A DNA stretch of 32,000 nucleotides from Halorubrum ruber. GTDB taxonomy: Archaea > Halobacteriota > Halobacteria > Halobacteriales > Haloferacaceae. The notes under the pieces were generated by a model, which did no database searches, was not told where the DNA came from, and worked only from the letters and a program-made list of their open reading frames with translations. The stretch covers positions 2,309,218 to 2,341,217 of the forward strand of contig NZ_CP073695.1 in the NCBI RefSeq assembly GCF_018228765.1. The letters are read 5' to 3'. Within the stretch, counting starts at the first letter, position 1. The number at the start of each line of letters is the position of its first letter. This document shows, one piece after another, positions 3,670 through 28,986 of this stretch. The translations under genes were made by a program, and so were the position numbers.

Positions 3670-3828
3670 ATGACTACTCTCTCTGATGACGAAGTCACAA
3701 TTTCAAGTGACAAGATTGAACAAATTCGGGAGCGCGTACTGAAAGCAGAAAAAGAGAAACTCCACTTAGATCTCCCACGTGGGATTAATGACGAAATTGA
3801 GCAAATAATTATAGAGGAAATTAACTAA
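3670..3828 (+). CDS. Small acidic protein (52 aa), first gene of the ATPase operon
   Basis: My own translation is MTTLSDDEVTISSDKIEQIRERVLKAEKEKLHLDLPRGINDEIEQIIIEEIN. It is below the ORF-track size cut-off. Its TAA shares one base with the next ATG (TAATG at 3826-3830), indicating translational coupling. Confidence 0.5.
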   Translation: MTTLSDDEVTISSDKIEQIRERVLKAEKEKLHLDLPRGINDEIEQIIIEEIN

Positions 3829-5858: not shown

Positions 5859-5859
5859 A

Positions 5860-6342
5860 ATGGGACGTATTATCAATTACAAGAAAACCGAGCTGTACGA
5901 CACGCTGGTTGATGAGTACGAAGTCTTTGAGAATTACTATGACCTTCTCATCTTCCTTGCGGTTATAGGATATAAGGAAGACAACCCCGTCCGCGAGGGA
6001 TACCGTGGTAGTAGTTCGGAGGGTACAGCTGGTGAATCGGGGCTACATAATGTTTATTCTCAGGATCTGTATCGTACGATTATGGCTAGTCTAGCCTTTC
6101 AGGATACCGGAGACCCAGAGGCTCTCGTTGACGAACAAACACATATGAAAGTTCTTGCTCAGTATGCTGCAGGTGGACTAGAGATTGCCGAAGACGAGTT
6201 CGGAGATATTGCTGGTGATCCTACAGATGCGATAATCAATTATATAAAAATGTCTCAGAGCGAGGGCACCGGAACTGAAGGAGAGCTAGCCAAGATTGTT
6301 CAGAGTTTTGATGACGAGATGATGAACATCGAAGGGGAGTAA
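5860..6342 (+). CDS. Hypothetical 160-aa protein coupled to the ATPase (possibly related to small Dnd-system-associated proteins; unverified)
   Basis: ATG 5860 lies 1 nt after the ATPase stop. The ORF-track start at 5704 would overlap the ATPase by 155 nt and is unlikely. Acidic composition; no motif confidently recognised. Confidence 0.65.
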   Translation: MGRIINYKKTELYDTLVDEYEVFENYYDLLIFLAVIGYKEDNPVREGYRGSSSEGTAGESGLHNVYSQDLYRTIMASLAFQDTGDPEALVDEQTHMKVLAQYAAGGLEIAEDEFGDIAGDPTDAIINYIKMSQSEGTGTEGELAKIVQSFDDEMMNIEGE

Positions 6343-6416
6343 ATTAGCATTACAGCAAGTATTTTTAAATTAGCCATATCCACAACATTAAGACGCCGCT
6401 GAGTATCAAGGGGACC

Positions 6417-8903: not shown

Positions 8904-9097
8904 GACTAGACTCTGCTATGGCCTACTCTTCAAATATACACTTACAGGGAATAGTAGGTCACTGAAGGATTGGAATAGGGCAGACTGGCCTATTTAAAAC
9001 GGTACTTCATCTTTTTCGAACTCTCCTCCCAATCATAGCCCTAATCACAGTCTTCACAATCGCATATACATGGCCCCTCTAATCAAATCTGTCAGAA

Positions 9098-9757
9098 TCA
9101 GACTGGTTGCTTTACAAACTCTGTTACAACGTAGAACGGAAGCGTATCAATTAGCGCGACAAGCAGCTTCACGATGTACTGCCCAGCGACGATTGAGGCG
9201 AGTGCCCAGCCCCACGTTGGCTCCCCACCAAGGCCGAGTGCCGGGAAGATAGCGAAGCCGAGCGTGATGAACACGATCGTGTCCACGCCTTGACTGACTG
9301 CAGTAGACCCACAGTTCCGAAGCCAGCGATGGCGACCGCCGGTGCGAGTCTTCAGATTGGCGAATAATCGGACGTCGAGATGCTGGGCGAACGCGAGCGC
9401 GACGACGGAGGCGAGGATGATCGATGCGGAGCCGCCAAGCGTCGATACGAACGCGTCTTGTCCACCGTAGAACGGGGCAGACGGCATCCAAATGGCGAGG
9501 AACACGAGCGCATACGCGATGACGAGCGTGACGACGGTTCCGTTGACCACGGTCGCAGCGTACTCTTTCCCGTGGTACTCGACAAGCAGGTCTGAAGCGA
9601 GGTAAGCCACGCCGAAGGCGACGAAACCGGCGGGGACGGCGACGCCCCCAAGCCCGGGGAGCTCGATCCACGTCAGTTTCGCTGCGAGGACGTTTGCGAG
9701 AACGATTGAACCGGCGAACACGGCGGTGAAGATCGCGCGAGTATCCTCAGTCTCCAT
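9098..9757 (-). CDS. yhhQ: VUT-family (YhhQ/DUF165) queuosine-precursor (preQ0/preQ1) transporter
   Basis: Polytopic membrane protein. The block AQHLDVRLFANLK..RHRWLRNCGSTAVSQGVDTIVFITLGF aligns by eye with E. coli YhhQ QILDVHVFNRLRQ..WWLAPTASTLFGNVSDTLAFFFIAF. Divergent from queD. Confidence 0.8.
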   Translation of the reverse strand: METEDTRAIFTAVFAGSIVLANVLAAKLTWIELPGLGGVAVPAGFVAFGVAYLASDLLVEYHGKEYAATVVNGTVVTLVIAYALVFLAIWMPSAPFYGGQDAFVSTLGGSASIILASVVALAFAQHLDVRLFANLKTRTGGRHRWLRNCGSTAVSQGVDTIVFITLGFAIFPALGLGGEPTWGWALASIVAGQYIVKLLVALIDTLPFYVVTEFVKQPV

Positions 9758-9911
9758 CAGCTGTCACCGTCTTGTATGGGCGTACAGTTTCCTGTGGTTC
9801 GCTGTCTTGAGCTGACCCCAGTAGAAACCGGTGCGCAACGACCGATAGGGTAGACGGTGGATGAGTGTGAGTCGGGTTGCTGTTCCATCGGTGAAGTAAC
9901 GAAACTCAATC

Positions 9912-9919
9912 TTTATATA
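9912..9919 (+). promoter_or_regulatory. TATA box (TTTATATA) for queD-queE(-queC)
   Basis: Ends 22 nt upstream of ATG 9941, consistent with a leaderless transcript. This supports 9941 rather than the track's GTG 9857 as the start. Confidence 0.5.
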
Positions 9920-9940
9920 TTCCCCGAATATTCTTCGAGT

Positions 9941-10402
9941 ATGTCCCGAAGTATATCAAGAGATGAATCCGAATCAGACGTCCTTCGTGAGGCCGGCCAA
10001 CGAACCCTCCACATCGGAGAGGATAACCCCATCCGAATTAGCTCGGGCCACCGTATTCTCCACCACGACGGAAAGTGCTCGCGGCCACACGGCCACAACT
10101 ACGAGATCGCCGTCGAAGTTACCGGCGAACTCATCGAAGAGGGGTGGGTCGTCGACAAAGGTGACGTCACAGACGTCATCGACGCGTGGGATCACCGATT
10201 CCTTGTCGAGGAGGGTGACCCGCTCGTCGACGCATTCGAGGCGTCGGGCGACGGCGACGCCCTCGTCGTCCTCGATCACCCACCAACGGCAGAGGTAATG
10301 AGCGTGCTCCTCGAACAGCGAATGCTCGACGCGTTCCCCGACACCGTCTCCGACGTGTCGGTGTCGGTGAGTGAAACCGGCGAGCTCTGTGCGAGTTACT
10401 GA
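9941..10402 (+). CDS. queD: 6-carboxy-5,6,7,8-tetrahydropterin synthase
   Basis: GHRILHHDGKCSRPHGHNYEIAVEVTG (QueD/PTPS Cys-His-His zinc/catalytic motif). Stop overlaps the queE ATG (TGATG). Confidence 0.9.
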   Translation: MSRSISRDESESDVLREAGQRTLHIGEDNPIRISSGHRILHHDGKCSRPHGHNYEIAVEVTGELIEEGWVVDKGDVTDVIDAWDHRFLVEEGDPLVDAFEASGDGDALVVLDHPPTAEVMSVLLEQRMLDAFPDTVSDVSVSVSETGELCASY

Positions 10403-11178
10403 TGCCAGTCGTAAGCGATGTGGAAGAACCCACAACGGACGCTGACGCGGCTGGTGAGGGCCTCCCAATCAACGAGGTGTTCTACTCGTTGCAGGGTGAG
10501 GGGACGCTCGCAGGCGTTCCCTCTGTCTTCGTGCGGACTTCTGGGTGTAACCTGCGGTGTTGGTTCTGCGATTCCTACCATACGTCGTGGGAGCCGACCG
10601 GCGCGTGGCGCGATGTCGACACGATCGTGGAAGAAGTACAGTCGCACGAACAGGCGAACCACGTCGTACTCACGGGCGGGGAGCCGCTCATCCACGAGGA
10701 GTCCATCGATCTCTTGGAGCGACTCGACGCCGAGGGGTACCACACAACGGTGGAGACAAACGGGACCATCTACCGGGACGCACCAATCGACCTCGCAAGC
10801 ATCAGCCCGAAGCTGGCGAGCAGCACGCCGACGCCGGATCGGGACCCGAAAGGCGAGGGCGAGTGGGAAGAGAAACACGAGCAAAACCGGATCGATATGG
10901 ATGCGTTGTCCCAGATGGTCGACGACTACGAGACGCAACTCAAGTTCGTCGTGACCGATGAGACAGACCTTCCGGAGATTACGGACCTCGTCGATCGAGT
11001 GCGGGCGGCGGCGACGACGACCATTGCTGACGACGACGTGTTGTTGATGCCGGAAGGTATGACGCGGGAGCAACTTGACGGAACGCGAAGCCAGGTGGCA
11101 GAGTTAGCGATGGAGTACGGCTACCGATACACCCCCCGACTCCACGTGGACCTGTGGAATGACGCACCCGGGACATGA
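10402..11178 (+). CDS. queE: 7-carboxy-7-deazaguanine synthase (radical SAM)
   Basis: INEVFYSLQGEGTLAGVPSVFVRTSGCNLRCWFCDS (QueE-type CxxxCxxC cluster motif) and VLTGGEPL. Confidence 0.9.
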   Translation: MPVVSDVEEPTTDADAAGEGLPINEVFYSLQGEGTLAGVPSVFVRTSGCNLRCWFCDSYHTSWEPTGAWRDVDTIVEEVQSHEQANHVVLTGGEPLIHEESIDLLERLDAEGYHTTVETNGTIYRDAPIDLASISPKLASSTPTPDRDPKGEGEWEEKHEQNRIDMDALSQMVDDYETQLKFVVTDETDLPEITDLVDRVRAAATTTIADDDVLLMPEGMTREQLDGTRSQVAELAMEYGYRYTPRLHVDLWNDAPGT

Positions 11179-11263
11179 ACGTCGCCTTGGTCGGCCCGAC
11201 CGATGGAGTGCCGTGGGGGCGTGGTGAACAGGACGACAATTGACTCAACACAACCGAAAATAC

Positions 11264-11953
11264 ATGAGCAATAAAAGCGCGGTCATTCTGGTTTCTGGCG
11301 GGATGGATAGTGCGACAGCGGTGTACGAAGCAATGGATCAGGGGTACGAGCCGTACTTCCTCCACACCTCATATGGGCAACGCACCGAAGACAAAGAGTA
11401 CGAGTGCGCACAGGCACTTGCCGAGGAGGTCGATGCGGCTGACTTCCTCCACATTGAAACGGGCCATCTCGCACAGATTGGGGCGTCGAGCCTGACGGAC
11501 GAAGAGATGGACGTCGCCGATGCTGACTTGGAGAGCGACGAAATTCCCACGTCGTACGTCCCCTTCCGCAACGCGAATCTACTGTCGATGGCAACATCGT
11601 ACGCAGAGGCGACTGACTCGGAGGCGCTGTTTATCGGAGCCCATTCTGAGGACTTCTCCGGGTATCCGGACTGTCGTCCGGCCTTTTTTGACGCCTTTCA
11701 GCAGGTGATCAACGTCGGAACGAAGCCCGAGACGGAAATCGAGTTGAAAGCGCCGTTCGTCGAGTGGTCGAAAACAGACATCGCTGAGCGTGGGTTAGAA
11801 CTTGGTGTCCCATACGACATCACGTGGTCGTGTTACCGGGACGAAGAGCCGGCGTGCGGGACGTGTGATGCGTGTGCGTTCCGGCTTGAGGCGTTCCGAA
11901 ATGCTGGGTCACGTGACCCGATTGCGTACGCTGAGCGACCTAAGTTTTCGTAA
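11264..11953 (+). CDS. queC: 7-cyano-7-deazaguanine (preQ0) synthase
   Basis: AVILVSGGMDSATA PP-loop and C-terminal zinc cysteines WSCY..CGTCDAC. ATG 11264 is preferred over the track's TTG 11240. Confidence 0.9.
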   Translation: MSNKSAVILVSGGMDSATAVYEAMDQGYEPYFLHTSYGQRTEDKEYECAQALAEEVDAADFLHIETGHLAQIGASSLTDEEMDVADADLESDEIPTSYVPFRNANLLSMATSYAEATDSEALFIGAHSEDFSGYPDCRPAFFDAFQQVINVGTKPETEIELKAPFVEWSKTDIAERGLELGVPYDITWSCYRDEEPACGTCDACAFRLEAFRNAGSRDPIAYAERPKFS

Positions 11954-11997
11954 TACTGCTTCAATAGTCATAGAGGCTGTCACTGTACTTTTTGAGA

Positions 11998-12399
11998 TTA
12001 GGATTTGTTGCTGGTGTCGCCAGTAAACTCATCCTCTCCGTTGAGTCGTCCCGTGACTCCATTTATAGCATAGATGAGTGTTGCTGCGACGTCGAACGCC
12101 TCTGTTCGTGACAGTCCCGAGATGGGCTTGGTCACGAACTCTTCTCCGTCCATATTCACACCAGTGATTGGAGTTACCGTATAGTCGCCATCGCCCATCG
12201 TCCCGTCAAGACGAACGAGGATTGTTTGATCGTCATCGTATATCCACTCAACGTAGTACTCATCATGAATCTCTTCGCTCCATCCTGACGGATAATAATC
12301 AAGACGCTCAGTTTCGCTTTCTGGCATGAGACGTATCTTGGTGTCGTCTACAGCAACAAATAAATCTGGTTGCGTGTCCTTCTGATGTAGTCCTCTCAC
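11998..12399 (-). CDS. Hypothetical acidic protein (133 aa) lying between the real and ghost queC 3' ends
   Basis: ORF with haloarchaeal-style acidic composition. No motif recognised. Confidence 0.5.
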   Translation of the reverse strand: MRGLHQKDTQPDLFVAVDDTKIRLMPESETERLDYYPSGWSEEIHDEYYVEWIYDDDQTILVRLDGTMGDGDYTVTPITGVNMDGEEFVTKPISGLSRTEAFDVAATLIYAINGVTGRLNGEDEFTGDTSNKS

Positions 12400-12421
12400 T
12401 GTATTAGCGCACGTGATTTTT

Positions 12422-12488
12422 GAAGCGTTCCGAAATGCTGGGTCACATGACCCGATAACGTACTCTGAGCGGCCAGAATTCTCGTGAA
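12422..12488 (+). pseudogene. Orphan queC 3'-terminal fragment (last 21 codons plus stop)
   Basis: 67 nt align without gaps to 11887-11953, with 56/67 identical by my count. It translates EAFRNAGSHDPITYSERPEFS* versus EAFRNAGSRDPIAYAERPKFS* in the intact gene. There is no upstream queC body. Confidence 0.75.
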
Positions 12489-12603
12489 CCGCTTAATATG
12501 CGATTCAATCTACCACAGTGATCGGTACAATCTGCTGGTCTAGCCCAGGTGTGCTCCGTAGAGTAGCCGATACTCTGATGATATTCCTCTACCAATCAAG
12601 CCT

Positions 12604-12789
12604 ATGCCGAAGGTAAGCGTTGAAATCCCTCAAGAGTTACTTGACGATCTTGACGACCACGTCGGCGACGAAGGAAAATTCGTCAACCGAAGCGACGCGA
12701 TTCGCGCCTCAATCCGCAAAACGCTCGATCTGCTAGAGGAAATCGATGAACGACAAGGGCGGATTGACTCATCTGAGGCTGACGACTGA
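12604..12789 (+). CDS. Ribbon-helix-helix (CopG/NikR-N-like) DNA-binding protein (61 aa)
   Basis: N-terminal MPKVSVEIPQELLDDLDDHV..NRSDAIRASIRKTL fits the beta-strand/helix/helix RHH pattern. Confidence 0.65.
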   Translation: MPKVSVEIPQELLDDLDDHVGDEGKFVNRSDAIRASIRKTLDLLEEIDERQGRIDSSEADD

Positions 12790-13006
12790 GATTTCTGATC
12801 GACATTGCTACTGTTCAACAGGAGAACTCACGTACCAACCAGCCTGGTAAATTCCCACAGTCTGCGGAGAATCTCTGTCGGATATAGAAGAGAGGCTACC
12901 CAGATGGGCACCACTTAGAGAAGATAGACCGAATTGATTCAAAAAATGATATATAGTTTATAATTCTAATGGAAAGATATATTTCATCACCTACAAACCA
13001 AAGAAT

Positions 13007-13732
13007 ATGGCTGATGATCCCGATATCATGACGGAGATTCTTGATGATATGAAATTGGATGACGATCGTGTCGATAATGAGTCCACCGATGGTCAATCCC
13101 AAAGTGAAGACATTCCGAATCTAGATGATTTACAAAAAGATGAGCGTCTTGAGCAACTAACCGAAGTAGGTCTTTTAACGGACGAAGAATATGATATACT
13201 GACTGAATATTATGATCGTACCACTAGTTCTGGCCAGCAAGAGTTCGGAACGCCGGTATACACCAGTGAAGGCTCAGAATTTGACTTTTCAATAGTTGGG
13301 GTTTTCCAAGATGTGAATACTAAAATTCTAACACTTCCGGAGTTCCTGAGCGTTGAGGAAGCTGACGATACCGAGACGTGGGATAATGAAGGGGGCCCTG
13401 GTCGAACGATTGTTTGTTTTCAGATTTACAATCACAGCTCCGAAGAAATCATGCTAAAACACAAAAATATCGAATATATCGGAGACAATGGAATTGCGTA
13501 CAATTATGACGGGAATCCATTAGTTAGTGATAGGCTTGAACCAGGCTGGCGAACCGATAACTGGGAATATATCGGACCAGATACAAGAATTCAGTACGCA
13601 TCTGTAATCGAGATGCCTGTGATTCCTGACTCATTGAAGCTCTCCGGATACTGGGAAGATACACATGAAATTGAACTAATAGATGACTTGTTTTTCCCAA
13701 AATCTGATTTACCGACTTCCGTTGAGATTTGA
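13007..13732 (+). CDS. Hypothetical acidic protein (241 aa); possible SHOCT-like motif plus C-terminal beta-sandwich (tentative)
   Basis: ORF with ATG and an upstream AT-rich region. The GLLTDEEYDILTEYY segment resembles SHOCT. The domain assignment is weak. Confidence 0.55.
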   Translation: MADDPDIMTEILDDMKLDDDRVDNESTDGQSQSEDIPNLDDLQKDERLEQLTEVGLLTDEEYDILTEYYDRTTSSGQQEFGTPVYTSEGSEFDFSIVGVFQDVNTKILTLPEFLSVEEADDTETWDNEGGPGRTIVCFQIYNHSSEEIMLKHKNIEYIGDNGIAYNYDGNPLVSDRLEPGWRTDNWEYIGPDTRIQYASVIEMPVIPDSLKLSGYWEDTHEIELIDDLFFPKSDLPTSVEI

Positions 13733-13855
13733 GAAGCTGACTCACTCTTTACAGAACTTTCAAATCAGATAATCAATCGCTGAAAGCACGTATAGACCGT
13801 ATCAGAGTCAGAACTTGTCACCTGAGGGTGTCTCAATAGAGCCTCTAAGAAAAAT

Positions 13856-15277
13856 CTATCCGGCGAGGAGGTCATATCTACGCTTTACTTCTTGTAATGA
13901 CCCCGTGGATGTCGGAACACCATCAACATCGGCGTCCGGATGATTCCGAGCAGTTTCCGCAAACATCGAAACTCGTTCGAGTTCCTTCCGGATGAGTGTC
14001 CGCTCAATTTCATACTGATCGTCGGACAGCATTTCTGGGTGTCTTTGAGTATCTGGTATTGTGATGAAGTCATGAATTACGGCATATTTTTTACCTTCGT
14101 ATTTTCGAAGGATCCGTCCTCTTCGTTGGACGTATTGTCGTGGATTCGATGTACTTGCTAGGATGTATGCCGTCCGTGTAGCAGGAATATCAACGCCCTC
14201 GTCAAGACATCTAATAGAAGTTAGAACGTCAATTTCTTCCTCATCGAACCGTGTCAACAGCTGTTTTCGTTCCTGTTGATTTTCGCGTGCGGTAAAGCGC
14301 TCAACAGACAAGTTACACTCATTTCGGATTCTCTCTGTTGTCAGGTCTACGTGACGCTGTAATTGGCCATCAACCTCCAATTTGCCATCACTACAGTAGA
14401 CAAGCGTGTGCTTGGTATCTATCTCAGAATTCAATAAATCAATAAGCAAGAATAGCTTCTCACGAGCGGTACCAATTAATCGAGCTCTTTTAAAAAGAGC
14501 TTGCTGTAAAGCAGGATTCTGTTCAAGATTCAAATTCCCTTCTTTGTCATTCGATTTCCCTGCAAGTCGACCGATCTTTGTGGTCAAACGCATGTACTCC
14601 TCCATCTCTTCGTCCTGTAATTCGACTATATGGGGAATGTAGTAATACTCACATAGTGCACCGGCTTCGATAGCTTTCTCAAGTCCATATTCAAAAACGG
14701 TTCCTCCAAAATATGCATCCAATTCTTTCGTCCCTTCTTCATCATACCATCTTTCTGGCGTTGCCGAAAGACCAAGTCGGAGGTCAAACTGATCACTAAG
14801 TGCCTCCTGTGTCTGAGCAGCACCCATATGGTGTACTTCATCTGCAATCAGCATTGAATTCCCGTTAGCCCTTCGAATTGTTTTTCTCGCAGATTCTCCT
14901 GACAGCGTTCGGTGTGTTGTAACTACTACGCAGGTGTCACGCATTCCGTTGTTGAATTCTAGCAGCTCACGTTCAAGCCGAGGTTGCCAATTACGTCGTG
15001 ATTCAAAGGCAAGAACAGGGGTAGCACCGAAATCATCGAGGTTAGATTTCCACTGATTAACGAGATGTTGATATGGCACTGCGACGACGAGCAGGAATTT
15101 TTTATCGACAGACTGATCCACACGCGTCGCGGCAAGGAGGGCTGTGACCGTTTTACCAGTCCCTGTTGCCATTTCTAGTATTCCCTTTCCTCCGGCAGAC
15201 ATCCACTCTTGTATTGCTTCTTGTTGATATGGACGGGCTTCTATCCAATCAGGAACGTGGAGGCCCTCATGAGACAT
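13856..15277 (-). CDS. Superfamily-2 helicase (ResIII + Helicase_C; XPB/Rad25-like DEAH type), 473 aa
   Basis: ARPYQQEAI (Q-like), MATGTGKT (Walker A), LIADEVHHMG (DEVH box), GLSATPER (motif III), LDEGVDIP and QYVQRRGRILR (motif VI). Start at ATG 15277 (MSHEGL..) is preferred because a TATA-like box sits 25 nt upstream, and the longer track ORF would overlap the divergent gene. Confidence 0.85.
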   Translation of the reverse strand: MSHEGLHVPDWIEARPYQQEAIQEWMSAGGKGILEMATGTGKTVTALLAATRVDQSVDKKFLLVVAVPYQHLVNQWKSNLDDFGATPVLAFESRRNWQPRLERELLEFNNGMRDTCVVVTTHRTLSGESARKTIRRANGNSMLIADEVHHMGAAQTQEALSDQFDLRLGLSATPERWYDEEGTKELDAYFGGTVFEYGLEKAIEAGALCEYYYIPHIVELQDEEMEEYMRLTTKIGRLAGKSNDKEGNLNLEQNPALQQALFKRARLIGTAREKLFLLIDLLNSEIDTKHTLVYCSDGKLEVDGQLQRHVDLTTERIRNECNLSVERFTARENQQERKQLLTRFDEEEIDVLTSIRCLDEGVDIPATRTAYILASTSNPRQYVQRRGRILRKYEGKKYAVIHDFITIPDTQRHPEMLSDDQYEIERTLIRKELERVSMFAETARNHPDADVDGVPTSTGSLQEVKRRYDLLAG

Positions 15278-15301
15278 CTTATCTACCTCAAAATGGCCCG
15301 C

Positions 15302-15312
15302 TGATATATATC
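15302..15312 (-). promoter_or_regulatory. TATA-like element (TGATATATATC on + strand) for the helicase gene
   Basis: Located 25 nt upstream of the minus-strand ATG at 15277, within the 165-bp divergent intergenic region. Confidence 0.4.
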
Positions 15313-15442
15313 TAAGCCGTGATGTTAAATTCACCAAAGTTAGGATTCCAAAAGCATCCTTAGCGAGAGTTCGAGTTGTTTTGGTCAAGAGAAGATTTGG
15401 TAACGAGTACTCTTTTACCTCCTCGGGATCGATACGGTTGCA

Positions 15443-15877
15443 ATGACAACGCTTCTGGTACAATCCTGTTCAGACACCAAAAACTCAGTCTCTACGCCCA
15501 CTCCGGCTCTTGATGTATATGATGGATATTTTTATAAAATTATCAAGAAGGCTATAAGAGAAGGAGAGTTTCGATCTGATATCGATATTCGAATTCTATC
15601 TGCAAAGCATGGTCTTCTCAAACCTAATGAGAAGATTCGATCCTATGACCGCCAGATGACTCAATCACGAGCTGCGGACCTTCGAGAGTCTGTCACAATG
15701 AATCTACAAGAACTGGTACAACAAAAGGAATACAACCGGATCGTTCTTAATATGGCCCGCGAGTATCGAAGTTCAATCGGAGAAATTCATGATTACCAAG
15801 GGCAAGTGAGTGAGATCTCTGGGAGTGGTATTGGCGAAAAGGGTGGGAAACTCAAGAAGTTCATCCGGGGAGACTGA
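15443..15877 (+). CDS. CSxTK-motif protein, DUF6884-like (144 aa)
   Basis: LLVQSCSDTK..ALDVYDGYFYK..ILSAKHGLLKPNEKIRSYD. By eye these motifs recur in the C-terminal domain of the 18734-20755 protein (LLIIPCSQTKPY..VSGMYGPVPEEFENISPIKSYE). The family name is from memory and unverified. Confidence 0.7.
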   Translation: MTTLLVQSCSDTKNSVSTPTPALDVYDGYFYKIIKKAIREGEFRSDIDIRILSAKHGLLKPNEKIRSYDRQMTQSRAADLRESVTMNLQELVQQKEYNRIVLNMAREYRSSIGEIHDYQGQVSEISGSGIGEKGGKLKKFIRGD

Positions 15878-15881
15878 CTGA

Positions 15882-17123
15882 ATGGGATTCAAACAAAAAC
15901 AGCATGATAATAATGGATTTGAGATTGCTAATCAAGCAGGAGCAGCACGCACTGGGACACTCCAAGTTGGAGACACAGAATTAAAAACACCAAATCTCTT
16001 TCCTGTAGTGAATTTCTACGCAGGGGGGACCTCATCAAGCCTGTACGGGGGAGGCATACATCGCACAATGAAGGAGTTCATGAACGGAGATGAAGTCATA
16101 AACGGCGGTGACTACAGCGAATACTTTGACGGCGTGATGACGTCTGTGGCTTCTTTAACTGACTACGGGATAACAAAAGAGCGATATGAAGAGTACATTG
16201 ACACTCCAATCAAGGAGAGAGACCTGTTTGATTTTGACGGCGTTCTATTTATTGATTCAGGGGGGTTCAAATTCCTCGGAGACAAGACATTGGATGGTAG
16301 TGATTTTGAAGTCGATGTCGATCAGAGGACAATTATAGAGATTCAACGTAAGCTTGGTGCTGACCTCGTTTTGAATCTTGACCGCCCAATTGAGCCTGAT
16401 GATGATTACGAAACTCGGATTCAAAAAGCACGTATGACGGCACAAAATGTCGATCAATTCCTTGAATTGACTGACCGACAGAAACAGACACGGTACCTAA
16501 CTCTTCATGGGTACAACTACTCTATGCTGAATACGTTTCTCACCGAGATTGAGAAAGTAATTGGAAAAAACCGTGTACACCGAGAATTTGACGGCGTAGC
16601 TCTCGGAAGCCTGGTTCCGCTTAAAGATAACAAGGGTAAGTTGATCACTGCGGTGAGCGACTGCAGAGAAGTCCTCGACGACTGGGGCTTTGATGATCTT
16701 CCATTACACGTCCTTGGTATTTCTTCAAGCGCAATTCCACTGCTTGCAGCAGTTGGTGCGGATACATTCGACTCATCGTCTTATCTTCACGCTGCAATTA
16801 ACGGGAAGTATCATACGTCGTTGTACAATACAGAACCGCTTGATGACGTTGATTTCTCAAACTGTGATTGCCCAGTCTGCTCTGACGACAAGCTTGTGAA
16901 TTGGATGGAGGGTGATGCCGAGTATCAGAAAGACAAGCTTGGAGCAGTATCAATGCATAACCTCATAATACAGAAAGAGGAAATCAGTCGCGTTAGGGAA
17001 GCAATCAGCAAGTCGGGAACCGACGGTTTGATTGAATATTTCGAACAATCGCTCAGCCGTCACAAATCGATGCAGCAGCATGCACACAGGGTTGTGAATG
17101 ATTCTCTTGGAGGATACTTCTAA
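15882..17123 (+). CDS. tRNA-guanine transglycosylase-fold protein, DpdA-like (413 aa, no PUA domain)
   Basis: GAARTGTLQVGDTELKTPNLFPVVNF, FIDSGGFKF, ALGSLVP, HVLGISS, GADTFDSSSY, and zinc motif CDCPVC followed by SMHN. Starts 4 nt after the upstream stop. Confidence 0.85.
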   Translation: MGFKQKQHDNNGFEIANQAGAARTGTLQVGDTELKTPNLFPVVNFYAGGTSSSLYGGGIHRTMKEFMNGDEVINGGDYSEYFDGVMTSVASLTDYGITKERYEEYIDTPIKERDLFDFDGVLFIDSGGFKFLGDKTLDGSDFEVDVDQRTIIEIQRKLGADLVLNLDRPIEPDDDYETRIQKARMTAQNVDQFLELTDRQKQTRYLTLHGYNYSMLNTFLTEIEKVIGKNRVHREFDGVALGSLVPLKDNKGKLITAVSDCREVLDDWGFDDLPLHVLGISSSAIPLLAAVGADTFDSSSYLHAAINGKYHTSLYNTEPLDDVDFSNCDCPVCSDDKLVNWMEGDAEYQKDKLGAVSMHNLIIQKEEISRVREAISKSGTDGLIEYFEQSLSRHKSMQQHAHRVVNDSLGGYF

Positions 17124-17125
17124 CA

Positions 17126-18679
17126 ATGTCAACAACAAAAACTCCCCAGGTAAATGAAGTAAACGAGTTCCTAGAAATTGCGAGTGACTTCGAAGATCCG
17201 CTCGAAGTAATCCGTGAATCCCTGTCTAATAGCTACGATGCAGGGGCTACTGAGGTCGAGATTACGATTAGAGACAGACCGATTGGATCCGAGATCGTGA
17301 TCGAAGATGATGGTGACGGGATGGACTATGCTGACCTAGAATCCTTCTTCGATTTGGGCAATTCGACGAAACGAGACCCGTCCTCTGATGCCATCGGCTA
17401 CAAAGGACATGGGACAAAAATATTCTATAAAAGCGAGGAGGTACTCGTCAATACTTCCAAAGAAGGAACGAATCTCCGTGCGCAAATGGAACAGCCCTGG
17501 GAAAAACTCAACAACCGAGTAATGCCTGAATACGAAGTTAGAGAACGCTCGGTGAAGGAGGGTAATAACGGGACTCACATCCGCATTACCGGATTCAAAT
17601 CCGGACGTGGATTCTCTCCTTCCTCACTTACTTATAATAAAATTGAACACTATTTGAAATGGAAGACGCTTGCAGGATCCACCGCTCACTACTTCACAGA
17701 TGACTATCACGAGATGGATATATATATCACGTTGGGTGACGAGATCGACGATACCCAGGAAACGCTCAAATTAGATAATAAACTCGAATTTCCCGATGAA
17801 CAGATTGAGCCCGGAGAAGGAAAATTTCCGGAATCAAGGATGTGTAAGCACTATCCACCTCGTGAGCTGACGGTGGAGACTGATGACGGAGATACAGCAA
17901 TTATCGAAGTAGTAGGCATGATTGGTGGGAAAGATGCTCGCAACGAACTCCCAACATACGGGAAGCATTCAGCGCAATTCGGGATCTGGCTTGCTAAGGA
18001 TTATATCAAAGTCGAACGTGTCAACGAAGTCATCTCACATGACAACGAGTTCCTCCACTTCTTTTTCGTGGCAAACTGCCAAGATATTGAGCTCTCTGCG
18101 AACCGTGAGAAAATCCGGAACAAATCGAGCTCTATCTACCAAGCAATTAAAGAAGAATTGAGCCACTATCTTTCCAAAATAGCTTCTGATCCTTGGTTCA
18201 AGGATTATCTCAATCAGCGACGAAAGGCCAAACTCTCGCGTCGAGCAGAATCTCAACAGTCTTCAGTCGAAGACCGTGAGAAGCGAATTCTCGATCGTGA
18301 GCAGTTTACTCCCTCTAATGATGCTGAGGTAGTTCTCGGTCTTGAAAGATCAAACCGGGAAGGTGCTCTCCCTAAGATTGTCGTTGAGGACTACGACCCC
18401 AGTGTAGAGGTTAACGCACTCGTCAAGCAGGATGATTCACTCTATGCGAGTTCGATCCATCATAAACTCACAGACCATTTTGAGGCAGACAAGCCTTTGG
18501 AGTCTGTTGATAAAATCATCTGCTGGTCGTATGGTGACCCCGACCAACTGAGTGAACTTGAGCGTCATGGATATCATGGGGGAGATATCACATTTGACCT
18601 CAATACAGGTCGGATTGAGTATCAGAACGGTCGAAAGCATAATATCCATATCGTTTCTGTCGAACAACGGTTTCAGTAG
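17126..18679 (+). CDS. GHKL-superfamily (HATPase_c_3 / MORC-Hsp90-like) ATPase (517 aa)
   Basis: N box IRESLSNSYDAGAT, G1 box IEDDGDGM, G2 box IGYKGHGTKIFY. Starts 2 nt after the TGT-like gene stop. Confidence 0.8.
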   Translation: MSTTKTPQVNEVNEFLEIASDFEDPLEVIRESLSNSYDAGATEVEITIRDRPIGSEIVIEDDGDGMDYADLESFFDLGNSTKRDPSSDAIGYKGHGTKIFYKSEEVLVNTSKEGTNLRAQMEQPWEKLNNRVMPEYEVRERSVKEGNNGTHIRITGFKSGRGFSPSSLTYNKIEHYLKWKTLAGSTAHYFTDDYHEMDIYITLGDEIDDTQETLKLDNKLEFPDEQIEPGEGKFPESRMCKHYPPRELTVETDDGDTAIIEVVGMIGGKDARNELPTYGKHSAQFGIWLAKDYIKVERVNEVISHDNEFLHFFFVANCQDIELSANREKIRNKSSSIYQAIKEELSHYLSKIASDPWFKDYLNQRRKAKLSRRAESQQSSVEDREKRILDREQFTPSNDAEVVLGLERSNREGALPKIVVEDYDPSVEVNALVKQDDSLYASSIHHKLTDHFEADKPLESVDKIICWSYGDPDQLSELERHGYHGGDITFDLNTGRIEYQNGRKHNIHIVSVEQRFQ

Positions 18680-18733
18680 ACGGCTGCAGGTAGCCGACTT
18701 TATCACATTCCGACTTCAATCAAAAGCCATAGA

Positions 18734-20755
18734 ATGGCATCGTTTGAGACTACATCTTCTGACGAGGCCGGTAATGCTCGAACCGGAACTCTCCACACTC
18801 CTCACGGTGATGTGGAAACGCCAGCGTTCTTCCCAGTTGTCAATTTCATAGGCGGACCAGATGAGAAATCAGGGGGAATATGGAGCCGACTTCGGAATCA
18901 CCTATTCGGCGAACCGGATTTTCAGGGAGCGATGTTTCAAGCGATGAGCTTCCTCGATTTTAACATCTCTCCCGATTCTCTCGATAACTGGCGATCAAAG
19001 TCTCTTCATGAGCATTTCACTGGGCATGAGCCAGTTAAGCCATATCATGATCAGCCGGAAGACTTTACCAAGCCGTTGTTTGTTGACTCTGGCGGATTCA
19101 AACTGCTGAATTCCGATACGTTCGGAGATAGACCTGAGGAGGGTGGTTCAGATAACGACTGGTCGATATACACCAATCCTGAGAGCATCCTTGAATTACA
19201 ACTTGACTACGGCGCGGACATAATTGCCACACTAGATTACCCCATTCCACCGAATCTCAACGAGGAAGAGACGACTCAGCGAATGGAAGACAGTATTGAT
19301 AGTGCTATACGCTGTCTTGAGCTTCTTGAACAAAGAGATGAGTCACCAGCAGTCTATGTGGCCATTCATGGCCACGACTACGAAACGATCAACTGGTATG
19401 TTGGTACGTTTCTTGACCGGGCAGGAGACCTTGACAACGCGTTCGAAGGGTTTGCAGTAGGGTCGCTAGTTCCACTCCGCACCAACGTAGAAACACTCGT
19501 TGATATTGTACAGGGTGCGAAGGATGCAATTCCTGAAAATCGGGTAGACGACCTCGGACTGCACCTGTTCGGCATTAGTGGGAAGTTCACTGCACTTCTT
19601 GCTCTTCTGGGTGCAGACTCGTTCGATTCATCTAGCTACATCCGTGCTGCCCAATTCAAGAAATTCATCAACCGCGAAATCGGTGTTGACGACGGTACGA
19701 CCGTTCGGCACCCAGATTCGGATAGCCACGATCTTGGCGATTTTGGTGTCGACATAGAACGGACATCTGAAGCGCGCTGGGCAGCGGACTGGTCAAAGTT
19801 CTCTGCCGATCAGATCCCCGACGACTGGGATTGCCAGTGCTCAGCTTGCGAAGCACTCCGCGAGATTGGGTATGACCAGATGCAGTCCACCCTATTCGAC
19901 AGCAAATCGTATGACCAGAGCGGAGATCATATGAAGAGCGATTTCTACGCGCTAATGGGGTATCACAACTTCCACGTTTATCAAGACGAGATGGACTATG
20001 TCCGCAATCTTATCCAACAGGGAGATGGTGAACTCCTCGACTACGTCGCTAAGATGGCCCGTAATGATGTAGGCGGCATTAGACAGGCACTCAAACGGGC
20101 TACTGTCCGCGACAGAGATTTGGCTACAGAACTCCGAGAACGTGGTTACGACAGACTCGTCGCTGAACGGGCGGACGGAGAGCAGGAACGCCTCAATGTC
20201 GACCTTCCGGTTGAAAGCCACGAGATCTCTCTTGAGTACACGCCCGAGGACTTCAATGTCTTAGAGCGTGACGACTATTGTCCGGGTGACGAACGAGTAC
20301 TTCTGATCATACCCTGCAGTCAAACCAAGCCGTACTCAAATTCCCGCACTCACCGAGTAGTCGCTGACGCGACTACCGAATGGAAGGATGAAATACACAA
20401 AGTCACCGTTTCAGGGATGTACGGTCCTGTCCCTGAAGAATTTGAGAATATTTCACCGATCAAATCATACGAATACGTCCTAACTGATGCCGAAACAGAC
20501 CGTCAGAATCTCATCAAAAATCGACTCGTCGAATATTTAAATCGTTTTGGCGGTGACTTCGATGTAATTGTTGGCTACGCCACGAGTAAGACATATCGTG
20601 AAGTCATCAAGCGATCCTTGGAAGAGTATGGCGAAGGTGTAGTTTTGCCTCGTGAACCCGAAATGCGAGCGTTGACAGAACACTTCCGTACAACGAATCT
20701 TCAGCAATTGGCAGACTATCTTGAGGAAGAATTAGCACCCCAAACCCGGAATTAG
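18734..20755 (+). CDS. TGT-fold / DUF5591-like fusion, ArcS-like but lacking PUA (673 aa)
   Basis: The N-terminal half has GNARTGTLHTPHGDVETPAFFPVVNF, FVDSGGFKLL, AVGSLVP, HLFGISG, GADSFDSSSY, and zinc motif CQCSAC followed by GYHNFH. The C-terminal roughly 155 aa (about nt 20290-20755) has LLIIPCSQTKPYSNSRTH..SGMYGPVPEE..YEY, as in the ArcS DUF5591 region. Confidence 0.85.
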   Translation: MASFETTSSDEAGNARTGTLHTPHGDVETPAFFPVVNFIGGPDEKSGGIWSRLRNHLFGEPDFQGAMFQAMSFLDFNISPDSLDNWRSKSLHEHFTGHEPVKPYHDQPEDFTKPLFVDSGGFKLLNSDTFGDRPEEGGSDNDWSIYTNPESILELQLDYGADIIATLDYPIPPNLNEEETTQRMEDSIDSAIRCLELLEQRDESPAVYVAIHGHDYETINWYVGTFLDRAGDLDNAFEGFAVGSLVPLRTNVETLVDIVQGAKDAIPENRVDDLGLHLFGISGKFTALLALLGADSFDSSSYIRAAQFKKFINREIGVDDGTTVRHPDSDSHDLGDFGVDIERTSEARWAADWSKFSADQIPDDWDCQCSACEALREIGYDQMQSTLFDSKSYDQSGDHMKSDFYALMGYHNFHVYQDEMDYVRNLIQQGDGELLDYVAKMARNDVGGIRQALKRATVRDRDLATELRERGYDRLVAERADGEQERLNVDLPVESHEISLEYTPEDFNVLERDDYCPGDERVLLIIPCSQTKPYSNSRTHRVVADATTEWKDEIHKVTVSGMYGPVPEEFENISPIKSYEYVLTDAETDRQNLIKNRLVEYLNRFGGDFDVIVGYATSKTYREVIKRSLEEYGEGVVLPREPEMRALTEHFRTTNLQQLADYLEEELAPQTRN

Positions 20756-20810
20756 ATCAACTAAGCCCGCATCCGGGTGGTGTACGACCTTACTGACTCA
20801 GATCAGCGGA

Positions 20811-20875
20811 TCTGAAATCCTGTTCTTCAGAGACATCTTCTTCTGATACAGTTGGTCGCTAAAGAGTATACACCA
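20811..20875 (+). repeat. Intergenic hairpin motif, copy A (short form)
   Basis: TCAGA-N10-TCTGA at 20827-20846, followed by ACAGTTGGTCGCTAAAGAGTATAC. Aligns with copies at 21.7, 23.1 and 26.8 kb. Confidence 0.7.
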
Positions 20876-21013
20876 ATCATTAGCTTAGGTATCTAATAGG
20901 CAGAACTCGACTATCAACTATAGAACTTGCAGCCCTTCTGGTGTCGGCAATAACGACTATTGTAGGTAGAGCCAACATTTATACTGGTGTAGGAACAACC
21001 AACATATGTCGTT

Positions 21014-21680: not shown

Positions 21681-21932
21681 CTATTCGAATCTGTTGTATC
21701 TCCTTTTTCAGATATCTTCTTGTCTGAAACAGCTGGTTGCTGAAGAGTACGAACCATCCTATTGCTCGGAGCATAGAACTAATAACAATCCGTCATACCT
21801 GATCCTATGACAGGGTATGACGCTCTCAGTCTCCGACAAATCTTGATACTCTTGCTCGGCGTCAGCATGATTGTGAGTGGTGCGGCCGGCCTCGCCGGAG
21901 TCTTCTAACTGATTCACTGTACTGAGCGATTC
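21681..21932 (+). repeat. About 250-bp direct repeat, copy 1 (hairpin motif copy B + promoter-like region + 33-aa ORF)
   Basis: Aligns along its length with 26803-27058, by eye roughly three-quarters identical. Contains TTCAGA-N10-TCTGAA at 21707-21728. Confidence 0.8.
21807..21908 (+). CDS. Small hydrophobic peptide (33 aa), paralog 1
   Basis: MTGYDALSLRQILILLLGVSMIVSGAAGLAGVF. Has the same length, frame and stop as the 26932 paralog. 5 of 15 differing codons are synonymous. AACTAATA box lies about 25 nt upstream. Confidence 0.45.
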   Translation: MTGYDALSLRQILILLLGVSMIVSGAAGLAGVF

Positions 21933-22093: not shown

Positions 22094-22861
22094 ATGACAT
22101 CCGATCAAATTGCTGCGTACGTACGAGCATCCACCGACAAGCAAGAGACATCCCACCAGCGGGACGATATCAACGAATGGGCCAAGCAAAACGGACATGC
22201 TCCGACCGAGATTGAGTGGTACGTCGACCTCGCGGAATCAGGTAGCGACCCCGGGCGCAAACAATTCAATTCACTCATCGACGACGTCGAAGCAGGCAAT
22301 TATGAGCGGGTGATCACGTGGGAGATCAGTCGATTATCGAGACTCGGGAGCACGTATCAGCGATTCTTTGAAGTGGCAGCTGACGCCGACACGATCGTGA
22401 ATGTCACGAACGGGTGGACAGACACTATCCTACCCGACGGCACCGGCAAGCTCATCGCAGATATAAGCGCGGCAGTTGCCGAGGAGGAACGCAGAAAGCT
22501 CATCAGTCGGATCAATTCAGGAGTAAAAAGAGCACGAAAAGAGGGCAAGTGGTTGGGCGAAGTTCCCACGGGATTTGACCGGAACGAACTGGGATACCTA
22601 CGACCACTAATCAACCCAGGAGAGGGCAAAGTGGGATACCTCGAAATGCGGGAAGCGCTCGTCGACATCGAGGAGGGAGAGTCATACAATTCTGCAGCTG
22701 CATCGATGGCGACGACCCGACAGACGTTGAGCCGAATCGATCAGGATGACGAGCGGCGATCATGGTACCTTGACGGACGAGCCGAGGACGATCGTGTCGC
22801 TGAAGCTCTCGAAACAGTGTCGAGTAGTAGCGATAACTTGAGGACTCCGACAGACTCCTAG
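22094..22861 (+). CDS. Small serine recombinase (resolvase/invertase family, 255 aa)
   Basis: AAYVRASTDKQ (catalytic Ser context), VITWEISRLSR, and C-terminal HTH-like SYNSAAASMATTRQTLSRI. Confidence 0.85.
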   Translation: MTSDQIAAYVRASTDKQETSHQRDDINEWAKQNGHAPTEIEWYVDLAESGSDPGRKQFNSLIDDVEAGNYERVITWEISRLSRLGSTYQRFFEVAADADTIVNVTNGWTDTILPDGTGKLIADISAAVAEEERRKLISRINSGVKRARKEGKWLGEVPTGFDRNELGYLRPLINPGEGKVGYLEMREALVDIEEGESYNSAAASMATTRQTLSRIDQDDERRSWYLDGRAEDDRVAEALETVSSSSDNLRTPTDS

Positions 22862-23116: not shown

Positions 23117-23177
23117 TGAAATCCTACTCTTTAGACACATCCTAGCCTAAAACAGTTGTTCGGTGAGAACTGCGAAC
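23117..23177 (+). repeat. Intergenic hairpin motif, copy D (short, divergent)
   Basis: TGAAATCCT..TTTAG-N12-CTAAA (23130-23151) followed by ACAGTTGTTCGGTGAGAACTGCGAAC. The stem differs from the other copies by paired substitutions. Confidence 0.55.
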
Positions 23178-23294
23178 TTGCCTCGTCGAGTCCCACCAGT
23201 TACAGATAGTGTTTAAAACGACGTACAAGATGTAGGACGCGTATCTGGCACGAGGAAAAATAATTTATTGAATGAAAATCGGAGTTAGTACCAT

Positions 23295-23777
23295 ATGTCA
23301 AGACCTCTTCCCGCTGATTGGAGAAACCGACGTAGAGAAATTCTCCGCAGAGATGATTACATGTGTCGGAATTGCGAAAGACATGAGGATATGCGAAACG
23401 TCTCGCTCGAAGTCCATCATATTGTTCCACGTCGTCGAGGCGGAACCCATGAAAAGTACAACCTCGTTACGATGTGCAGTCACTGCCATGACCGAGTACA
23501 TAATGGTGATGTGGAAACACCAGACGATCCGTTAGGATATATTGACCGTATAAAACAAGAAGTGAGGAGCTTTCGGTGGCGACAAGCGAATATCACAGAT
23601 ATCGACGCACAGTCTATTGCCAGAACAGTTGCCGGGTCATTCCCGGACCCCACCTCGATTCAAACTCATACGTCATTAAGAGATACTCTCAGAAATCCTC
23701 CGCAACGAACATTCCCCAACTTTTTGCTCGATATTGGTTATCATGTGACAGAAAGAGAGGCCACTTGTGCTGAGTGA
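23295..23777 (+). CDS. HNH endonuclease (160 aa)
   Basis: CRNCERHE..LEVHHIVPRRRGGTHEKYNLVTMCSHCHDRVH (CxxC..HH..N..CxxCH HNH motif). Confidence 0.85.
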   Translation: MSRPLPADWRNRRREILRRDDYMCRNCERHEDMRNVSLEVHHIVPRRRGGTHEKYNLVTMCSHCHDRVHNGDVETPDDPLGYIDRIKQEVRSFRWRQANITDIDAQSIARTVAGSFPDPTSIQTHTSLRDTLRNPPQRTFPNFLLDIGYHVTEREATCAE

Positions 23778-26802: not shown

Positions 26803-27058
26803 CCTATTGGCTTTGTTGAAACGTTCTTCTTCAGAGATATTCTTGTCTGAAACGGCTGGTCGTTGAAAGGTACGAACTGTCCTAATTGCTCGGAGCATAG
26901 AACTAATATACAGCCCGTGGTACTCCGTTCTATGATAGGGTATGACGCCCTCGGCCCGCAGCAGATCATGATCCTCTTGCTTGGCGTCACGATGATTGTG
27001 ACTGGTGGAGCCGGTCTCCTCGGAGCCTTCTAACTGAGTTCACTGTATTGACCGATCC
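26803..27058 (+). repeat. About 250-bp direct repeat, copy 2 (hairpin motif copy C + promoter-like region + 33-aa ORF)
   Basis: Aligns with 21681-21932. Contains TTCAGA-N10-TCTGAA at 26830-26851. Confidence 0.8.
26932..27033 (+). CDS. Small hydrophobic peptide (33 aa), paralog 2
   Basis: MIGYDALGPQQIMILLLGVTMIVTGGAGLLGAF. See the paralog at 21807. Confidence 0.45.
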   Translation: MIGYDALGPQQIMILLLGVTMIVTGGAGLLGAF

Positions 27059-28901: not shown

Positions 28902-28986
28902 GCGCGGGTTGCCGAGCCAGGCCAAAGGCGTAGCGCTTAGGACGCTATCCCGTAGGGGTCCGCCGGTTCGAATCCGGTCCCGCGCA
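28902..28986 (+). tRNA. tRNA-Leu (anticodon UAG), class II, no encoded CCA
   Basis: Manual fold. Acceptor GCGCGGG/CCCGCGC with discriminator A. Anticodon stem TAGCG/CGCTA with loop CTTAGGA. Long variable arm CCCGTAGGG. T arm GCCGG-TTCGAAT-CCGGT. Confidence 0.9.

Follow-up and report, generated by a model that had tools for sequence, protein, structure and literature searches.

What would an enzyme that joins a base-exchanging transglycosylase to the catalytic core of archaeosine synthase (ArcS) be doing on a defence-like island of a haloarchaeal chromosome? The question is raised by a gene of Halorubrum ruber (18734-20755, plus strand) that starts with ATG and encodes a fusion of a tRNA-guanine transglycosylase (TGT) with a DUF5591 domain, 673 amino acids (aa) in length. 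It lies in a stretch of 32,000 nucleotides (nt) of contig NZ_CP073695.1 (assembly GCF_018228765.1, positions 2,309,218 to 2,341,217), hereafter called the window. An earlier note on this DNA had described the protein as ArcS-like and devoid of a PUA domain, and had suggested that it modifies preQ0 (7-cyano-7-deazaguanine) in DNA. Judged from homology and gene context, the fusion is, on balance, probably a bifunctional enzyme of a horizontally mobile, haloarchaeal, Dpd-like module for 7-deazaguanine modification of DNA.

The two halves of the protein are readily recognised. The N-terminal catalytic domain (aa 1-445; 18734-20068, plus strand) matches Pfam TGT over aa 111-443 (E 2.7e-31; 109.4 bits, cut-off 26.3), and the C-terminal DUF5591, or ArcS C1-core, domain (aa 513-673; 20270-20752, plus strand) matches Pfam DUF5591 over aa 513-638 (E 3.3e-19; 69.6 bits, cut-off 26). 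The motifs DSGGFK (aa 118-123), GADSFDSSSY (293-302, with D295 and D298) and CQCSAC (367-372), followed by H411, make up an intact TGT core. By alignment to the archaeosine TGT (ArcTGT) of Pyrococcus horikoshii and to Zymomonas mobilis TGT, it was found that D118 occupies the general-acid/base position of DSGGF, D298 the nucleophile position in GxDxFD and D168 that of the substrate-binding aspartate, while the zinc site is matched by C367-x-C369-xx-C372 and H411. The C-terminal part carries LLIIPCSQTKPYSNSRTH (aa 523-540), SGMYGPVPEE (560-569) and YEY (579-581), and in it the ArcS motif PC-X3-KPY-X2-S-X2-H is intact as PCSQTKPYSNSRTH (aa 527-540; nt 20312-20353), with the residues P527, C528, K532, P533, Y534, S537 and H540. 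Among 38-39 homologues of the fusion at 43-95% identity, this motif is invariant and the catalytic and zinc residues of the TGT domain are invariant or at least 90% conserved. The open reading frame (ORF), its TGT core and the motifs quoted in the earlier note were thus all found in their places.

The claim that the PUA domain is missing also held. A Pfam scan gave no PUA match at E<=0.01. Beyond the DUF5591 match the chain runs on for just 35 residues, which AlphaFold2 models as a single helix (aa 649-667), and since a PUA domain takes up about 75 aa, the fusion can be taken to lack one. The model itself was built from a 39-sequence alignment (mean predicted local distance difference test, pLDDT, 79.6; predicted template modelling score 0.66), and its best PDB match in Foldseek is ArcTGT 1iq8 (E 8e-19). 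Homology of the C-terminal domain to DUF5591 was upheld by the Pfam profile, by a phmmer match to the solved ArcS fragment AF0587 (2q07, E 2e-7) and by the fold. As for the likeness to ArcS, it stands for this C1 core and not for the N-terminal part, which is a full catalytic TGT; the NCBIfam ArcS equivalog NF040592 reaches 82.8 bits against a cut-off of 440, and matches at model positions 288-432 only. By its domain make-up the protein unites a full TGT with the C1 core of ArcS and is not an ArcS without PUA.

Comparison with the tRNA-modifying enzymes makes the same point. Canonical ArcS (TgtA2), which works with RaSEA in Euryarchaeota, shares the homologous C1/DUF5591 core with its PC-X3-KPY-X2-S-X2-H motif and a TGT-related N-terminal region, but it also carries C2 and PUA and acts on preQ0-15 of tRNA, whereas the fusion has neither C2 nor PUA and possesses a complete catalytic TGT. 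ArcTGT of P. horikoshii (1IQ8) is what the N-terminal domain matches best in structure and sequence, the aspartates and the CxCxxC...H site being aligned; its tail, however, is a tRNA-binding C1-C2-PUA block, in place of which the fusion has DUF5591 alone. The TgtA equivalog TIGR00432 scores 98.1 bits (cut-off 350). Housekeeping ArcS or ArcTGT was therefore rejected, on the equivalog scores, the absence of PUA and C2, the island context and the sporadic distribution. Membership in the bacterial-type DpdA family was rejected on the score of its equivalog NF041059 (cut-off 200), which reaches 19 bits with the fusion and 29.7 bits with a second TGT encoded nearby; in a PADLOC scan the fusion had no match and this second TGT matched DpdA with 24.7 bits.

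Which genes accompany the fusion was examined in a locus survey based on two peptide patterns, not exhaustive, which gave 37 related loci besides the window. Homologues of the fusion number more than 120; they are full-length, all TGT plus DUF5591, 45-94% identical and spread over many haloarchaeal genera, and their annotation goes no further than 'tRNA-guanine transglycosylase' or 'DUF5591 domain-containing protein'. Species-representative genomes hold 34 full-length fusion loci, all from Halobacteria bar one metagenome-assembled genome (MAG) of Candidatus Poribacteria. One locus is on a Halorubrum plasmid, and the closest relative (95%) is on a Halorubrum contig. A module of four genes, encoding a DUF6884 protein of about 150 aa, a TGT of about 413 aa, a GHKL ATPase of about 517 aa and the fusion, is found in the window and in 32 of the 37 related loci (the DUF6884 gene in 33 of all 38), and queCDE adjoins it in 14 of the 38. 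The DUF6884-TGT-GHKL trio is constant in order and tightly packed, with gaps of 4 and 2 nt in the window, while the fusion gene may stand after it, before it, convergent or divergent; these four gene orders argue for a functional, not an accidental, link between fusion and trio.

The first and the last genes of the trio are conserved partners that the earlier note had passed over. The DUF6884 gene (15443-15877, plus strand) encodes a DpdC-like protein of 144 aa (Pfam DUF6884, 52 bits), which is basic (isoelectric point 9.2, against 4.5-4.9 for its neighbours). Its C9-S-D-T-K13 and L-S53-A54-x-x-G57 correspond to the CxxxK and LSAxxG motifs of the family (PMC11701544), to which bacterial DpdC belongs (PMC11888242); the PADLOC match to DpdC is weak (26.5 bits), as are Pfam matches to YaaA and DUF5591. 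DpdC converts preQ0 in DNA to 7-amido-7-deazaguanine (ADG), independently of DpdA and DpdB (PMC10164549). The GHKL ATPase (17126-18679, plus strand; 517 aa; Pfam HATPase_c_3, 63 bits) is MutL-N/MORC-like and has the invariant ATPase motifs of the Bergerat fold (E31/N35/D38, D61xGxG65 and G91xKGHGTK98). In Foldseek, its AlphaFold2 model (pLDDT 78.9) matches MutL-N (6.6e-10), then the ATPase modules of MORC2, SMCHD1, Hsp90 and GyrB, and so has a fold like that of MutL and MORC, which are DNA-clamp ATPases; about 120 C-terminal residues are confidently modelled and carry no assignment. Its 261 homologues at 58-81% identity co-distribute with the module. By analogy, we infer that this protein would take the role of DpdB, the ATPase needed by DpdA for preQ0 insertion. 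The idea that it is instead the nuclease of a self-contained restriction-modification system was rejected, since ATPase modules only, and no nuclease fold, were among the Foldseek matches. One homologue (P0353, 60% identity), on a 5-kb contig, bears the NCBI label Streptomyces sanglieri; all other relatives are haloarchaeal, and the label is likely due to contamination of that assembly.

Between these two lies TGT paralogue 1 (15882-17123, plus strand; 413 aa; Pfam TGT, 97 bits), which the earlier note had rightly pointed out. D125, D167, D294/D297, C328/C330/C333 and H359 are all kept. Over 317 aa it shares 32% identity with the fusion (E 6e-44; hhalign profile-profile E 2e-62), and in these comparisons it is the closest relative of the fusion's TGT domain. 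Both island TGTs share an invariant histidine, H212 of the fusion (nt 19367-19369) and that of 'TLHGY' in paralogue 1 (aa ~209), which aligns with the base-contacting glutamine of ArcTGT and bacterial TGT (P. horikoshii Q169, in 'TIQGS'). The alignment makes this exchange of Gln for His in the base pocket a lineage-specific change of the island paralogues, which have lineage-specific insertions as well.

A supply of preQ0 is encoded on the same island. The genes queD (9857-10402), queE (10402-11178) and queC (11240-11953), all on the plus strand and assigned by profile matches, specify preQ0 synthesis, and a transporter of the Vut_1/YhhQ family (9098-9757, minus strand; Pfam Vut_1, 135 bits) is a candidate preQ0 importer. 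A YhhQ-type transporter also adjoins the module or the fusion in four other loci (L005, L027, L030 and L044). About 530 nt downstream of queC there is a 66-nt copy, at 85% identity, of its 3' end (12420-12485, copying 11886-11951), which suggests a past rearrangement or insertion at this place.

With ArcTGT as the closest solved relative of the fusion, the substrate could in principle be RNA. According to this alternative, the protein would be a compact ArcTGT plus ArcS that makes archaeosine (G+) or a variant in tRNA or another RNA, as a back-up or as an island-borne variant that would sustain translation while the cell is infected. A passage of PMC11298593 cites the PUA domain as dispensable for ArcTGT, the same paper reports that ArcS acts on minimal RNA substrates (PMC11298593), and one distant fusion (L042) sits among genes that look like housekeeping genes. 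Yet the fusion is linked to a MutL/MORC-like ATPase and to a protein of the DpdC family, of which the one characterised member is an enzyme of DNA; its genes are found in defence islands, are sporadically distributed and include a plasmid copy, and the island in the window is low in GC; and its scores fall far below the cut-offs of the TgtA and ArcS equivalogs. An RNA enzyme is, on this evidence, decidedly improbable, and the context makes DNA the more likely substrate.

The nearest precedent for such an activity on DNA, which the earlier note had not taken into account, comes from Vibrio phage nt-1. Its DpdA2 alone gives 2'-deoxy-7-cyano-7-deazaguanosine (dPreQ0) in plasmid DNA, and DpdA2 together with ArcS2, a standalone DUF5591 protein, gives 2'-deoxyarchaeosine (dG+) in plasmid DNA in E. 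coli, an organism lacking RaSEA (PMC10516641). As in the island, a TGT-fold inserter is combined with a DUF5591 core without PUA, and both proteins match the fusion by fold: nt-1 ArcS2 (R9TEI9) aligns with the model over 179 columns (E 1.3e-4), and the DpdA2-like protein of nt-1 with the TGT domain (E 4.6e-7). The island differs from nt-1 in that both activities are in one chain instead of separate proteins, in that the gene is cellular and lies on an archaeal genomic island instead of being viral, and in being accompanied by another TGT, by a DpdC-like protein and by a GHKL ATPase. Moreover, the ArcS motif is degenerate in nt-1 (PMC10516641) but intact in the fusion. A DUF5591 domain without PUA, fused to a TGT, with a second TGT adjoining and queDEC nearby, amounts to the ArcS2 type of domain and gene content. 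A tblastn search of 50,697 phage records for close viral relatives of the domain returned only marginal matches to STSV1/2 and PhiF1; as to viral ArcS2, it showed similarity to that of STSV1/2 alone (33% identity over 36% of the DUF5591 domain).

The second precedent is the Dpd system of Salmonella Montevideo, consisting of DpdA, DpdB, DpdC and DpdD-K, which writes 7-deazaguanines into host DNA: DpdA and DpdB carry out the insertion of preQ0, and its conversion to ADG falls to DpdC (PMC10164549). Like this system, the haloarchaeal module occupies a genomic island and comprises a predicted inserter of the TGT family, an ATPase partner and a putative nitrile converter of the DUF6884 family; in both, queC, queD, queE and yhhQ often adjoin and helicase and nuclease genes of restriction type are found at the flanks, which in some haloarchaeal loci include DpdJ-like and DpdE-like helicases. 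The bacterial system, in contrast, relies on the ParB/DndB-like DpdB; no DndB/ParB-like gene was found in the haloarchaeal module, where a MutL/MORC-like GHKL ATPase is conserved instead. It has one TGT, whereas the island has two ArcTGT-like TGT paralogues that score only 19-30 bits with the DpdA model (cut-off 200); the ArcS-core domain has no bacterial counterpart, and the haloarchaeal module has no fixed restriction operon. All the kinds of component of a Dpd-type restriction-modification island are present, although the ATPase belongs to another family, the restriction partner varies between loci and the PbeA-like protein of the window lacks its nuclease part.

From these parallels a mechanism can be proposed. 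The island's QueD, QueE and QueC would make preQ0, or the YhhQ-like transporter would import it, and the TGT domain of the fusion, in which the catalytic aspartates, the substrate aspartate and the zinc site are kept, would then swap guanine in double-stranded DNA for preQ0. The fused DUF5591 domain, as the ArcS catalytic core, would attack the nitrile of the DNA-bound preQ0 to give an amidine, which may be dG+ or, if there is no cleaving partner, an adduct of lysine or another amine. As to the product, our guess places dG+ first, an amine adduct second and hydrolysis products third. The fusion would form half of a pair of writer units that act in parallel; its counterpart would consist of TGT paralogue 1 and the DpdC-like DUF6884 protein, with dADG (2'-deoxy-7-amido-7-deazaguanosine) as its predicted product, and would work with the GHKL ATPase in place of bacterial DpdB. 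By these marks the cell's own DNA would be made known to the helicase and nuclease genes, which differ from island to island.

The earlier note had suggested another division of labour, with paralogue 1 inserting preQ0 and the fusion derivatising it. In the sequential scheme that follows from this, paralogue 1, with the GHKL ATPase, does the insertion, and the TGT domain of the fusion only binds DNA and flips the base for DUF5591. The scheme gains from the joint occurrence of both paralogues in 32 of the 37 loci, from the bacterial Dpd system, where insertion and nitrile conversion are discrete steps of different proteins (PMC10164549), and from canonical ArcS, whose TGT-like domain inserts no bases (PMC10516641). 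However, the catalytic and zinc residues of the fusion's TGT domain are invariant in the family, while a pure scaffold could lose them, and the two units also occur apart. When partners were sought by hidden Markov model search (E<=1) within up to 10 kb, fusions without DUF6884, paralogue 1 and GHKL genes were found in four haloarchaeal loci, in the Poribacteria locus and for four distant fusions (30-40% identity), with at least 8 such loci, including L019, L025, L034, L036 and L042-L045; conversely, locus L050 (8305-11560) has the DUF6884-TGT-GHKL operon and no TGT-DUF5591 fusion within 10 kb. Because each occurs without the other and both TGTs are catalytically intact, fusion and trio are best regarded as separable writer units, and the division of labour into inserter and derivatiser is not favoured; we consider it unlikely. 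The same helicase/STAND set adjoins fusion-only loci (L025 and L034), the operon-only locus (L050) and combined loci (L002, L003 and L048).

Some of the solitary genes deserve a separate word. The fusion of the bacterial Candidatus Poribacteria MAG (L036, 9947-11893) is full-length, 35% identical and devoid of DUF6884, paralogue 1 and GHKL companions; it adjoins an HKD plus Snf2 helicase (PADLOC C3a139, 279 bits), and either was transferred between domains or is a reduced form of the system with two genes only. There are also apparently standalone DUF5591 proteins at 44-51% identity. Those of L046 (5694-6597) and L047 (1-1086), at about 50% identity to the C-terminal domain of the fusion, each follow a TGT-fragment ORF, recognised by profile match with E 0.0023 and 1.4e-12, respectively. 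Such proteins were for this reason rejected as genuine split forms and are probably decayed or split fusions.

A more far-reaching version of the parallel-writer proposal would place two marks in cellular archaeal DNA: dADG from the split unit and dG+ or an amino-acid amidine adduct from the fused unit, with a GHKL clamp driving both and with interchangeable restriction back-ends (DpdJ/DruE-like helicase sets, HKD-Snf2 and Pbe). We regard this extended scheme as possible, albeit tentative.

The chemistry of the second step is the next point at which another explanation has to be considered. DUF5591 might hydrate or hydrolyse the nitrile, to ADG or 7-carboxy-7-deazaguanine (CDG), or add another nucleophile, or else the TGT domain might insert a base other than preQ0. 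In hhalign, DUF5591 and DUF6884 share four collinear motifs (P 0.0013, with a probability of only 19%), there is a weak Pfam cross-match between the two families, and the C-terminal domain of the fusion has further fold matches to viral DUF6884 proteins and YaaA; the motifs, the cross-match and the shared fold matches are suggestive of distant homology. The Gln-to-His exchange in the base pocket of both TGT paralogues speaks for this explanation as well. The viral DNAs also allow for it, that of STSV-2 containing 2'-deoxy-7-carboxy-7-deazaguanosine (dCDG) and that of nt-1 dADG in addition. Nevertheless, the ArcS motif is invariant over its whole length, KPY, S and H included, dG+ was the outcome in the one case where a standalone DUF5591 protein was tested directly on DNA (PMC10516641), and a second hydratase would be redundant because the module already has a DpdC-like gene. 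A different chemistry is, taken together, improbable. The further idea of an eraser, a TGT that removes viral 7-deazaguanines, was set aside, as incorporation of 7-deazaguanines by TGTs is effectively irreversible.

Several observations weigh against the bifunctional DNA-modifying enzyme that is preferred here. Both TGT paralogues are nearer by sequence to tRNA-acting ArcTGT than to bacterial DpdA, and the distant fusion of L042 has neighbours that look like housekeeping genes. No single restriction partner is conserved, and the PbeA-like gene that abuts the module in the window lacks its nuclease part. Since both paralogues have His in place of Gln169, the inserted base need not be preQ0. The yield of dG+ with nt-1 ArcS2 is tiny, at 4-7 per 10^6 nt (PMC10516641), and Sulfolobus virus STSV-2, with DpdA and ArcS2, carries dCDG and not dG+ (PMC10516641); for these two reasons, the DUF5591 domain does not predict the product. 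Finally, ArcS of Thermococcus kodakarensis is active only in complex with RaSEA (PMC11298593), and no RaSEA was found within 10 kb of the module in the 38 loci.

The matter of RaSEA had been raised in the earlier note, which gave queE as the only radical S-adenosylmethionine (SAM) gene of the window and suggested that the end product could be an intermediate-type adduct. QueE (10402-11178) is indeed the sole radical-SAM match among the 30 window ORFs scanned. In the 38 loci the search was made, within 10 kb, for non-QueE ORFs of at least 200 aa with CxxxCxxC, and only MZB zinc fingers of large helicases matched. ArcS and RaSEA co-occur in Euryarchaeota, and a host RaSEA for tRNA archaeosine may sit elsewhere in these genomes and serve in trans; that RaSEA is missing nearby is accordingly weak evidence on the product. 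The observation was confirmed and its consequence was not: an intermediate adduct does not follow when a RaSEA in trans, or the use of NH4+, Gln or Asn as known for ArcS of Methanocaldococcus jannaschii (PMC11298593), is possible. The T. kodakarensis enzyme transfers lysine and accepts even a preQ0 nucleotide, and tRNA structure is not required by ArcS (PMC11298593).

The mobile, defence-like setting described in the earlier note was corroborated across the window. GC content is 44-50% on the island, as against 59% in one flank and 69-73% in the other, and a tRNA-Leu gene (28902-28986, plus strand) marks its boundary with the core, where GC rises from 55% to 69%; no att-type direct repeat of this tRNA of at least 18 nt was found for the other end. 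Within the island, the queD/E/C-yhhQ block has 56-61% GC (over 9001-12000) and the four-gene module 44-50% (over 12001-21000), a difference that points to a mosaic whose parts have different histories. A serine recombinase (22094-22861) and an HNH protein (23295-23777), both on the plus strand, are mobility-related. Other defence genes of the island lie on the plus strand of 3828-8903: they encode a PbeC-like ABC ATPase (3828-5858) and a GmrSD-type DUF262/DUF1524 enzyme (6417-8903), along with an unassigned ORF (5704-6342). A GajB-like helicase gene is also on the island.

Directly beside the module is a PbeA-like superfamily 2 (SF2) helicase gene (13856-15463, minus strand), whose start shares 21 nt with that of the DUF6884 gene, divergent from it. 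PbeA is normally an HKD nuclease plus SF2 helicase (PMC10853773); here PADLOC PbeA matches with 550 bits at positions 242-668 only, and TIGR04095 gives 560, below its cut-off of 600. The gene may be a truncated remnant, as the absence of the HKD nuclease half would suggest, or a helicase-only variant of PbeA. PbeC is 8 kb away, with GmrSD, yhhQ and queDEC between them.

In other genomes the neighbours are different ones, and among them is a MkoA-like ATPase. A set of five genes recurs with the module in about ten loci (for example, L002 15676-22007; L025 12228-21664; L003 1-4487; L050 11562-21560). It begins with a DEAD/Helicase_C/MZB helicase of about 1570 aa that matches the DruE, DpdJ and DrmA models, followed by proteins of about 305 and 277 aa, a STAND-like nucleoside triphosphatase of about 975 aa and a protein of about 233 aa. 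Pfam and PADLOC leave four of these five without an assignment, and the genes are a candidate for an undescribed effector set. In L050, the operon is flanked by a DpdJ-like helicase of 1359 aa (163 bits) on one side and the helicase-MZB/STAND set on the other. Haloferax prahovense (L048/L049, 15716-20355) has an island with a prokaryotic Argonaute (Piwi domain, 839 aa) and an adjoining PLD-like partner, and in this species an inserted gene for an HNH_repeat/HHH_5 protein separates the fusion gene from the three-gene operon.

The window also contains an intergenic element of about 210 nt that occurs twice, 5.1 kb apart (21703-21912 and 26826-27037). The two copies have an exact 24-mer, ATTGCTCGGAGCATAGAACTAATA, in common, with flanking blocks at 77-83% identity, and the element holds the inverted repeat TTCAGA(N12)TCTGAA. 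Relatives of 59 nt are found at 20822-20880, beginning 67 nt past the stop codon of the fusion, and at 23126-23184. The element could be a miniature inverted-repeat transposable element, a recombinase site or a regulatory element.

The 7-deazaguanine marks documented so far in DNA come from bacterial Dpd islands (dPreQ0 and dADG) and from viruses (eight derivatives, dG+ among them). Full-text searches of the literature within reach led to work on viral ArcS2, bacterial Dpd and haloviral DpdA4; no account of this cellular archaeal module, no archaeosine in cellular DNA and no Dpd-like system in Archaea was found there, although an earlier mention may exist. If the two-mark proposal is true, the island would be the first Dpd-like system known from Archaea and the source of the first archaeosine-type base in the DNA of a cell. 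Four genes plus queDEC make for a compact module, which is widespread in culturable Halobacteria, and one member of this class, Haloferax volcanii, is genetically tractable. The module raises the questions of whether an ArcS core domain can act on DNA without RaSEA, of what a GHKL ATPase contributes to base exchange in duplex DNA, and of whether DUF5591 and DpdC are two branches of one nitrile-activating enzyme family. The module could also yield new enzymes for sequence-specific labelling of DNA, and it matters for the virus-host biology of haloarchaea because haloviruses such as HVTV-1 use 7-deazaguanines.

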